In this document: piece by piece, positions 35,620 through 36,106 of the stretch
Layout: each line of letters starts with the position of its first letter
Numbering within the stretch: position 1 is the stretch's first letter
DNA from: Escherichia phage vB_Ec-M-J
Sequence record: OQ718158.1
Direction: 5' to 3' (one strand)
Length of the DNA stretch: 64,000 bases
Notes under the pieces: model-generated
Told to the model about the DNA's origin: nothing
Seen by the model: only the letters and a program-made list of their open reading frames with translations
Databases searched by the model: none
Program-made: the position numbers and the translations under genes

Positions 35620-35784
35620 ATGACACATGAAGAATGGATGAATGACATTAATTTTAGATATTCGGGTATCGGTAGTTGGAGAAAATATCATTGGGAAATC
35701 ATATCAGACCCAGCAGAATACGATAAACTTATGAATGATGAAGTGTATCCGTGGTTCTTTATTGAAATAATGGTACGATTATGA
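35620..35784 (+). CDS. small protein, MTHEEW mini-family copy 1 (54 aa), not in ORF track
   Basis: MTHEEWMNDINFRYSGIGSW...; ATGA overlap with copy 2. Confidence 0.5.
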   Translation: MTHEEWMNDINFRYSGIGSWRKYHWEIISDPAEYDKLMNDEVYPWFFIEIMVRL

Positions 35785-35945
35785 CACATGAAGAATGGAT
35801 GAATGACATTAATTTTAGATATTCGGGTATCGGTAAATGGCTAAAGTATCATTGGGAATTCATTTCAGAGCCACATCTGTATGATAAACTTATCAACGAT
35901 CCAGCATATGAAATGTACTTAATTGAACTACTGGTACGAATATGA
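35781..35945 (+). CDS. small protein, MTHEEW mini-family copy 2 (54 aa)
   Basis: MTHEEWMNDINFRYSGIGKW...; near-identical 5' 50 nt to copy 1. Confidence 0.5.
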   Translation: MTHEEWMNDINFRYSGIGKWLKYHWEFISEPHLYDKLINDPAYEMYLIELLVRI

Positions 35946-36106
35946 CACATGAAGAGTGGATGAAACGCCAAAAAATAAAGTGGAATCCTTATTATCTACC
36001 ATTAGATTCTAGAATGTGGGATGTTATACGTGTTAAGTGTATGTACAAAGCATATTTAAGTACTGAACTCGACGAAGAAGTACTGATGCATATCGTGCAC
36101 CGATGA
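35942..36106 (+). CDS. small protein, MTHEEW mini-family copy 3 (54 aa), diverged
   Basis: MTHEEWMKRQKIKWNPYY... Confidence 0.45.
   Translation: MTHEEWMKRQKIKWNPYYLPLDSRMWDVIRVKCMYKAYLSTELDEEVLMHIVHR

Follow-up and report, generated by a model that had tools for sequence, protein, structure and literature searches.

Copy-number polymorphism and recombination footprints in a family of small paralogous genes of Asteriusvirus jumbo coliphages

We report that a tandem triplet of 54-codon genes in Escherichia phage vB_Ec-M-J belongs to a family of small paralogous genes whose arrays differ in copy number among Asteriusvirus genomes and carry footprints indicative of recombination between paralogues. 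On balance, the explanation that best accounts for our results as a whole is that of a lineage-restricted Asteriusvirus family of coding genes, subject to birth-and-death turnover, whose products may be early host-binding proteins. The sequences themselves had already been deposited and clustered before, and are uncharacterised; what is new is the polymorphism of the array, the recombination footprints, the large arrays of uncultured relatives and the placement of two PHROG families in one superfamily. The main present gain is one of annotation: two PHROGs of unknown function are merged, and ORFs shorter than 60 codons are recognized as real genes. Comparative studies of Asteriusvirus should likewise expect copy-number polymorphism. 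The analysis covered a 64-kb stretch of the phage genome (the window), and the features discussed below are collected in Table 1.

Table 1. Coordinates of the features analyzed; positions refer to the window unless preceded by the handle (L) of another locus
Feature	Coordinates	Strand	Family or evidence
Fifth, divergent member, G type, 61 aa, pI 4.7	33939..34124	+	phrog_31562; iterated profile
Copy 4 (c4), D type, 56 aa, 171 nt, pI 6.9	34121..34291	+	phrog_10970
Sigma-70-type promoter-like site	35383..35412	+	TTGGAA, 18-nt spacer, TATAAT, TG extension; 10/12
tRNA-Ser(UGA)	35423..35512	+	ARAGORN; Rfam tRNA 60.1 bits
Weak tRNA-like element	35517..35595	+	Rfam tRNA 32.6 bits (gathering score 29)
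Copy 1 (c1), A1 type, 54 aa, pI 4.7	35620..35784	+	phrog_10970; AlphaFold
Tail/head junction repeat (…GGTACGATTATGACACATGAAGAATGGATGAA), c1/c2	35762..35803	+	Direct-repeat family D2
Copy 2 (c2), A2 type, 54 aa, pI 5.1	35781..35945	+	phrog_10970
Same D2 junction repeat, c2/c3	35923..35964	+	Direct-repeat family D2
Copy 3 (c3), B type, 54 aa, pI 7.9	35942..36106	+	phrog_10970
Sigma-70-type promoter-like site	36116..36143	+	TTGACT, 16-nt spacer, TATAAT; 11/12
Runs of small genes in metagenomic contigs	L012 81-4378; L013 7223-10485; L014 683-3945; L010 286-4379		
NUMOD4/HNH genes	L001 4958-5482; L006 10961-11485; L019 4379-4903; L013 11157-11756; L015 6741-7688		

Composition and coding status of the family

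The triplet had been described in a first-pass annotation as three consecutive 165-nt ORFs overlapping by ATGA, and direct reading of the sequence together with a listing of all ORFs of at least 30 aa established that its coordinates and lengths were exact. The encoded products are MTHEEWMNDINFRYSGIGSWRKYHWEIISDPAEYDKLMNDEVYPWFFIEIMVRL (c1), MTHEEWMNDINFRYSGIGKWLKYHWEFISEPHLYDKLINDPAYEMYLIELLVRI (c2) and MTHEEWMKRQKIKWNPYYLPLDSRMWDVIRVKCMYKAYLSTELDEEVLMHIVHR (c3). The same annotation had noted the near-identity of c1 and c2 over some 50 nt at their 5′ end and the further divergence of copy 3, and both observations hold: the first 55 nt of c1 and c2 are identical and the remainder 73% identical (81% overall), and c3 retains 33-39% nucleotide identity in ungapped register. 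An AAAGG Shine-Dalgarno-like motif lies 9 nt 5′ of the c1 ATG, and ATGA stop/start overlaps are found at 34121-34124, 35781-35784 and 35942-35945. Such overlaps are frequent here whatever the gene family (two of the five 4-nt overlaps in the BF17 locus do not involve family genes), so that the overlap alone says little.

An ORF upstream of the triplet (c4, MTHKEWLDELKFKHNPFGFGIRQGHYDVLKDKQLFKSFVLDEDSNHWYIYELAIRK) had been put forward as a fourth paralogue, and its kinship with the triplet is borne out by E-values of 7e-7, 6e-6 and 2e-6 against c1, c2 and c3, respectively, in phmmer comparisons among the 1334 ORFs of the window (1e-26 for c1 against c2). All four products match phrog_10970 (c1 6.6e-27, c2 1.4e-24, c3 4.5e-26, c4 4.6e-29), and they do so over nearly its full length (positions 1-55/56 of a 56-position profile). 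Judged from these comparisons, the resemblance among c1-c4 is not due to chance, and c4 is the most central member, connecting the other subtypes. The four paralogues stand, but the total of four does not, since the window holds five members and each cultured genome up to six.

The fifth member, ORF 33939-34124, matches phrog_31562 (E = 5.7e-42, positions 1-59 of 61). It was missed by a four-sequence profile and recovered once metagenomic members were added, the iterated family profile picking it up at full length (E = 9e-8) and recruiting in the window only this ORF and c1-c4. By BLASTP it shares 46% identity (E = 7e-16) with a member of a metagenomic array (L013_7389). Linked by the iterated profile and by BLASTP, phrog_10970 and phrog_31562 are, on the evidence of sequence comparison, one superfamily. 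The TGA stop of ORF 33939-34124 overlaps the ATG of c4, and this ATGA link divides the members in the window into a coupled-type pair (33939-34291) and the triplet (35620-36106).

We define here, from 81 unique sequences, an MT-x-x-E-W superfamily of 50-65 aa proteins with an N-terminal M-T-x-x-(E/D)-W, a periodic hydrophobic core and a C-terminus of the form (A/V)(V/I)R or A(I/L)A(F/L)G(K/D). All of these features are present in c1-c4, and ORF 33939-34124 lacks the N-terminal M-T, reading MQPKTFDEW with the T-x-(D/E)-W core four residues in. Compared with the two PHROG families, the window copies are ordinary members that show no difference. Sixteen clusters emerged from a word-indexed search of 5.8 billion proteins, and only 22 hits from an exhaustive HMMER scan of 1.84 billion representatives, nearly all of these matches being 43-64 aa long and starting with MTH.EW. 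One HMMER hit, the 1052-aa protein P0026, matched profile positions 19-40 in eight stretches (E = 3e-8); as a family relative it was judged spurious, probably a compositional or repeat artefact, and all other HMMER hits belong to the same small family. Distant members were not found in cultured phages outside Asteriusvirus, and a search of the literature found no mention of the family, the motif or the PHROGs.

A 4-kb query spanning the array found matches in 66 phage records; those that match best (90-99.6% nucleotide identity) are Asteriusvirus jumbo coliphages of about 350 kb (BF17, EC.P1, WPEC3, 121Q, PBECO4 and others). By these matches, the window is assigned to Asteriusvirus, as a 121Q/PBECO4-like jumbo coliphage. 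The records of its relatives contain the tandem arrangement as well and label its ORFs as hypothetical proteins (121Q, BF17, WPEC3, G17, JNE01, phAPEC6), and genes 125-127, 118 and 114 of 121Q and gp094c-096c of phAPEC6 all belong to the same protein family. In ten genomes the family profile identified 46 ORFs, all intact and conserved in length, which fall into six subtypes: A1 (c1), A2 (c2), B (c3), D (c4), E and F. Five further genomes, for a total of 15 cultured ones, added only intact copies, and the A1, A2, B and D copies are intact throughout these 15 genomes and one metagenomic contig. The B copy of JP4 (L019 2606-2770) is annotated from an internal start at 2624; its 54-codon ORF is intact from 2606 and, at full length, keeps the ATGA overlap.

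Within the six subtypes pooled dN/dS values range from 0.19 to 0.32, which shows these to be coding genes, and third codon positions hold an excess of the variable columns. The pattern reflects purifying selection on the family genes within each subtype. It is highly improbable, by comparison, that the repeats are non-coding or that the ORFs are selectively neutral filler in a plastic region. Copies are freely gained and lost, have no known function and, in one 121Q paralogue, contain a stop codon, all of which would suit filler; the dN/dS values, third-position variation and conserved length argue against it, as do the lack of frameshifts and stops in the first 46 ORFs and in the arrays of the later genomes, and AlphaFold models that are confident for so small a protein. 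The initial annotation had named frameshifts or stops in homologues as the sign of non-coding repeats, and none occurs in the A1, A2, B or D copies; its reading of the array as diversified tandem paralogues of a real micro-protein gene is upheld by the intact copies and their dN/dS.

The stop codon concerns a seventh subtype and is the only one found among family copies. In 121Q (L002 5636-5809) W21 is replaced by a stop, which leaves MTHEEWLVQTEHLVIASMKF on one side and NEQLMH…AITFGD on the other, and the two parts of this paralogue, separated by the in-frame stop at codon 21, are annotated as genes 115 and 116. JNE01 (L016 365-538, with W21) and Turkey5 carry the subtype intact, and the 121Q copy may be either a pseudogene or the product of a sequencing error.

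Array polymorphism and recombination between paralogues

Array types were determined by using as queries the 3′ portions of c1 and c2, which are copy-specific, and duplicate RefSeq records were removed. The A1-A2-B arrangement, with A1 and A2 about 160 nt apart, is present in 18 of the 33 sequenced Asteriusvirus genomes; 13 of the 33 carry A1-B, with A1 and no A2, and the remaining two (ELP-22 and JP4) A2-B, with A2 and no A1. This amounts to 18 three-copy and 15 two-copy arrays, with A1 orthologues in 31 of 33 genomes and A2 orthologues in 20 of 33. In the genomes examined the B gene is always present and always last in the array, and a further array (L015) reads A3-A1-B, with a different first copy.

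Outside their shared head, A1 and A2 differ at a synonymous divergence (dS) of about 0.58, with a dN/dS of about 0.5. This value implies that A1 and A2 are old, and it lies far above the divergence between orthologues of either copy in most genomes. The first-pass annotation had taken the array for a recent, local duplication, and this part of it has to be abandoned: A1-A2-B is common to 18 of 33 genomes and the bodies of A1 and A2 have the divergence just given. A recent tandem duplication private to this phage, caught soon after its origin, would readily account for the identity of c1 and c2 across the 55 nt at their start. It is nonetheless refuted by the genus-wide distribution, the same array with near-identical orthologues occurring in 18 genomes from several continents; A1 and A2 each serve as the sole A copy in other genomes, and the body dS points the same way. 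We accordingly give this scenario next to no credence.

The identical 55-nt start appears to be better explained by recombination or gene conversion, acting together with constraint on the protein, than by recency, which is disfavoured because the same head variants occur in A1 or in A2 depending on the phage and because hybrid heads are found in two-copy arrays. In JP4, the first copy fuses the A1 leader and an ACG-type head, as in G17, to the A2 body of G17, the expected product of a crossover inside the identical 55-nt heads that would have deleted A1. The B copy of slurp01 carries the A-type GAAGAA in its head, where every other genome having a B copy of the 121Q type reads GAAGAG; it matches what would be expected from a crossover between the heads of A2 and B that deletes A2. 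A YAGFG head variant is found in the A1 of PBECO4 and E9.1 and, in full, in the A2 of TH47, the A2 of JNE01 carrying only its GFG part, and this distribution indicates exchange between paralogues.

Within the window itself, c1 and c2 differ synonymously at none of 15 degenerate head codons and at four of 18 in the body, a borderline signal of head homogenisation (binomial P = 0.02, Fisher P = 0.07). Gene conversion statistics from this one genome are suggestive only, and the argument for recombination rests on the cross-genome mosaics. The 42-nt D2 junction repeat, present in three copies at a spacing of 161 nt, may have provided a substrate for unequal crossover where it spans the c1/c2 and c2/c3 junctions. 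Collectively, the comparative patterns identify this as a birth-and-death family, with unequal homologous recombination apparently taking place at the junction GGTACGAWTATGACACATGAAGARTGGATGAA.

The MTHEEW head varies synonymously (ACA/ACG, CAT/CAC, GAA/GAG), which places the constraint at the protein level. A regulatory or target site as the main cause of head conservation was rejected, as synonymous head positions vary. Besides answering to protein constraint, the conserved head may act as a recombination substrate.

The tRNA cluster, promoter-like sites and uncultured relatives

The array sits within a tRNA cluster, and tRNA-Ser(UGA) lies immediately 5′ of it in all relatives. Between this tRNA and c1, the weak tRNA-like element at 35517-35595, which is not called by ARAGORN, ends 24 nt before the c1 start codon; a 21-nt anticodon-arm repeat is common to it and tRNA-Ser(UGA), and its own loop is CTTCTAA. 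The same slot is occupied by tRNA-Arg(tct) in slurp01, UE-S1 and G17 and by tRNA-Leu(taa) in 121Q, differences that mark it as variable and possibly degenerate in the window. In several relatives the tRNA cluster contains insertions of free-standing NUMOD4/HNH homing-endonuclease genes (Table 1), and the equivalent position of the window (37421-37575) has no NUMOD4/HNH gene.

A further structured element lies at 34520-34592, where a GC-rich, cloverleaf-like fold with an 8-bp closing stem (GCGGCAUG…) stands amid AT-rich DNA (MFE -26.5 kcal/mol, z = -2.5). One of its hairpins, TTCGATT, is T-loop-like, and a CTTCCGA loop has exactly the sequence of the anticodon loop in the tRNA-Gly(tcc) of 121Q and slurp01. 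The element is called by neither ARAGORN nor Rfam, is conserved at 91-100% in ten relatives, some of which have a short CDS annotated over it, and may be a non-canonical or decayed tRNA-Gly.

The constant siting in the tRNA cluster and the apparent co-transcription with tRNA-Ser would both be explained if the proteins had a tRNA-related role, such as the binding or protection of tRNAs, whether of the phage or of the host, or a defence against anticodon nucleases. Family members are indeed interleaved with tRNA genes in all Asteriusvirus genomes and in the metagenomic relatives, and the triplet starts 24 nt after the tRNA-like element. Set against this, phage tRNA clusters are generally plastic and gather small ORFs and homing endonucleases, as the NUMOD4/HNH genes of the relatives illustrate; the proteins span the acidic to neutral range and are not basic, and no RNA-binding fold was detected in them. 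We therefore hold a tRNA-related role to be improbable.

A scan of the 64-kb window for TTGACA-N16-18-TATAAT found 36 plus-strand sites with at least 11 of 12 matches, nine of them perfect (12/12), against none on the minus strand and a shuffle mean of 2.45 sigma-70-type sites per strand. Such a count gives the entire window the appearance of a densely packed region that the host RNA polymerase transcribes, presumably early. The promoter-like site at 35383-35412 is the likely start of a unit comprising tRNA-Ser, the tRNA-like element, c1, c2 and c3, and the site at 36116-36143 marks the putative downstream boundary of this unit. No plus-strand terminator-like site was found between the first of these sites and either 36106 or the second. 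The related phage CBB also has RpoD-type promoters concentrated among short ORFs, suspected by its authors to be early host-takeover genes (PMC5259590).

Two other arrangements of promoter-like sites were observed nearby. An exact 23-nt direct repeat, CTTGACTAAATAGTTCAGTACTG, at 36115-36137 and 36536-36558 holds the -35 hexamer of two promoter-like sites flanking ORF 36175-36540, and the pair looks like a duplicated promoter cassette. A perfect 12/12 sigma-70 site (34747-34775) lies inside ORF 34665-34862, 145 nt 3′ of another perfect site (34602-34630).

On metagenomic contigs, genes for products of 50-65 aa follow one another in runs of about 20, with 17 family members in L012 and 11 each in L013 and L010; the remaining small ORFs of these runs may be members too, diverged still further. 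Several members of these expanded arrays resemble ORF 33939-34124 (phrog_31562). The expanded arrays adjoin the same tRNAs as the window array, and L013 is collinear with window positions 29288-32173 at 27-70% amino-acid identity, which places its expanded array in the same syntenic slot.

These uncultured arrays bear on the idea that A-type and B-type proteins are subunits of one hetero-oligomer, made in fixed proportion through translational coupling, instead of acting as independent effectors on separate targets. Every cultured genome examined has at least one A-type gene followed immediately by exactly one B-type gene, always joined by ATGA, and A1 and A2 are acidic (pI 4.7-5.1), B slightly basic (pI 7.9). 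In L010, however, a B-like gene (P0019, 4197-4379) has no A-type gene before it, arrays of 11-17 divergent members do not suggest a fixed stoichiometry, and ATGA overlaps are common here irrespective of the family, so that we consider the hetero-oligomer unlikely.

Predicted fold, proposed role and comparison with known systems

AlphaFold models c1 as four helices (residues 3-13, 22-27, 31-39 and 43-53; pLDDT 74.8) and c4 likewise (3-14, 23-30, 32-40 and 46-53; mean pLDDT 85.1), from which we infer that the family fold may be a small four-helix bundle of about 55 aa and 6.8 kDa. Among the 81 unique members, the head is conserved at M1 (0.96), T2 (0.99), E5 (0.91, plus D at 0.05) and W6 (1.00); core positions are periodic and at least 85% hydrophobic, and the intervening polar positions have an entropy above 3 bits. 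No paralogue contains a hydrophobic run of more than five residues, which points to soluble proteins.

Judged by textbook helix-capping rules and by where helix 1 lies in the models, M1-T2-x-x-E5-W6 would be a helix N-capping box with a hydrophobic staple, T2 serving as N-cap with E5 at N3, and M1 at N′ with W6 at N4. The start of helix 1 at residue 3 in both models agrees with the capping-box reading. The head would then be the structural start signal of helix 1, and its nucleotide conservation would incidentally supply homology for recombination.

Sequence and fold searches returned no relative of known function. The family ORFs had no hit to Pfam-A or PADLOC at E-values up to 1, NCBIfam models scored only 10-13 bits against cut-offs of 250-580 bits, and the family profile found nothing usable among PDB sequences. 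There was no reproducible fold match to the MLLE/PABC domain well above the noise of small helical bundles, and no homology to known anti-CRISPR or anti-defence proteins was found. The virion proteome of phAPEC6 determined by mass spectrometry comprises 62 proteins (PMC7247149), and the orthologues gp094c-096c, gp099c and gp100c are missing from it (PMC7247149). A virion-structural role was rejected on this absence, which for a gel-based survey and proteins of 6.8 kDa is weak evidence.

Our tentative proposal for the role of the family is that its members may be early non-structural proteins, each binding a different host protein for takeover or counter-defence. The triplet would be transcribed early by the host RNA polymerase as a tRNA-mRNA co-transcript, as its promoter-like consensus matches suggest; c1 would be translated from its own Shine-Dalgarno (AAAGG) site, and c2 and c3 by termination-reinitiation at ATGA. 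A conserved hydrophobic core would carry a surface that varies greatly among paralogues (pI 4.7 to 7.9), and paralogue turnover would reflect shifting host targets.

A bolder version of this proposal, which we regard as rather doubtful, would make the capped four-helix scaffold a modular counter-defence or host-takeover arsenal, with the head as a shuffling handle for co-infecting phages. One scaffold would present many surfaces, each paralogue neutralising a different host protein, and the conserved head would act both as helix cap and as the homology with which cassettes are shuffled, added and deleted. Such an arsenal would explain why array size ranges from two or three among the cultured coliphages up to 17 or more among uncultured relatives. 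If the role proposed here is true, the family would constitute a compact natural library of diversified 6.8-kDa binders in jumbo coliphages under development for therapy, and would show cleanly how genes can be gained and lost like cassettes by way of a short conserved head.

Early gene clusters of large virulent phages include the host-takeover module of SPO1 and the immediate-early small ORFs and hyperplastic regions of T4. Like these and the CBB cluster, the region analyzed here is a variable part of the genome in which many short ORFs follow dense host-type promoters, all on the same strand. No homology to SPO1 or T4 proteins was detected, and the Asteriusvirus array differs in that most of its ORFs belong to a single paralogous family and in that its early timing is predicted from sequence. 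The small size (50-60 aa), often acidic character, restriction to a lineage, clustering and fast turnover of its members are likewise found in anti-CRISPR and anti-defence clusters.

Among large eukaryotic DNA viruses, tandem multigene families and genomic accordions are represented by the K3L amplification of poxviruses and the MGF families of ASFV. These also consist of tandem paralogues in a large dsDNA virus, with copy numbers that vary among isolates through unequal recombination. A genomic accordion in the strict sense, in contrast, has near-identical recent amplicons. Copies of that kind were not found in the Asteriusvirus array, whose copies are old and divergent (81% nucleotide identity between A1 and A2, 33-39% and near saturation for the other pairs). 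Viewed against these systems, an array of this kind is ordinary for large virulent phages in their early, plastic regions.
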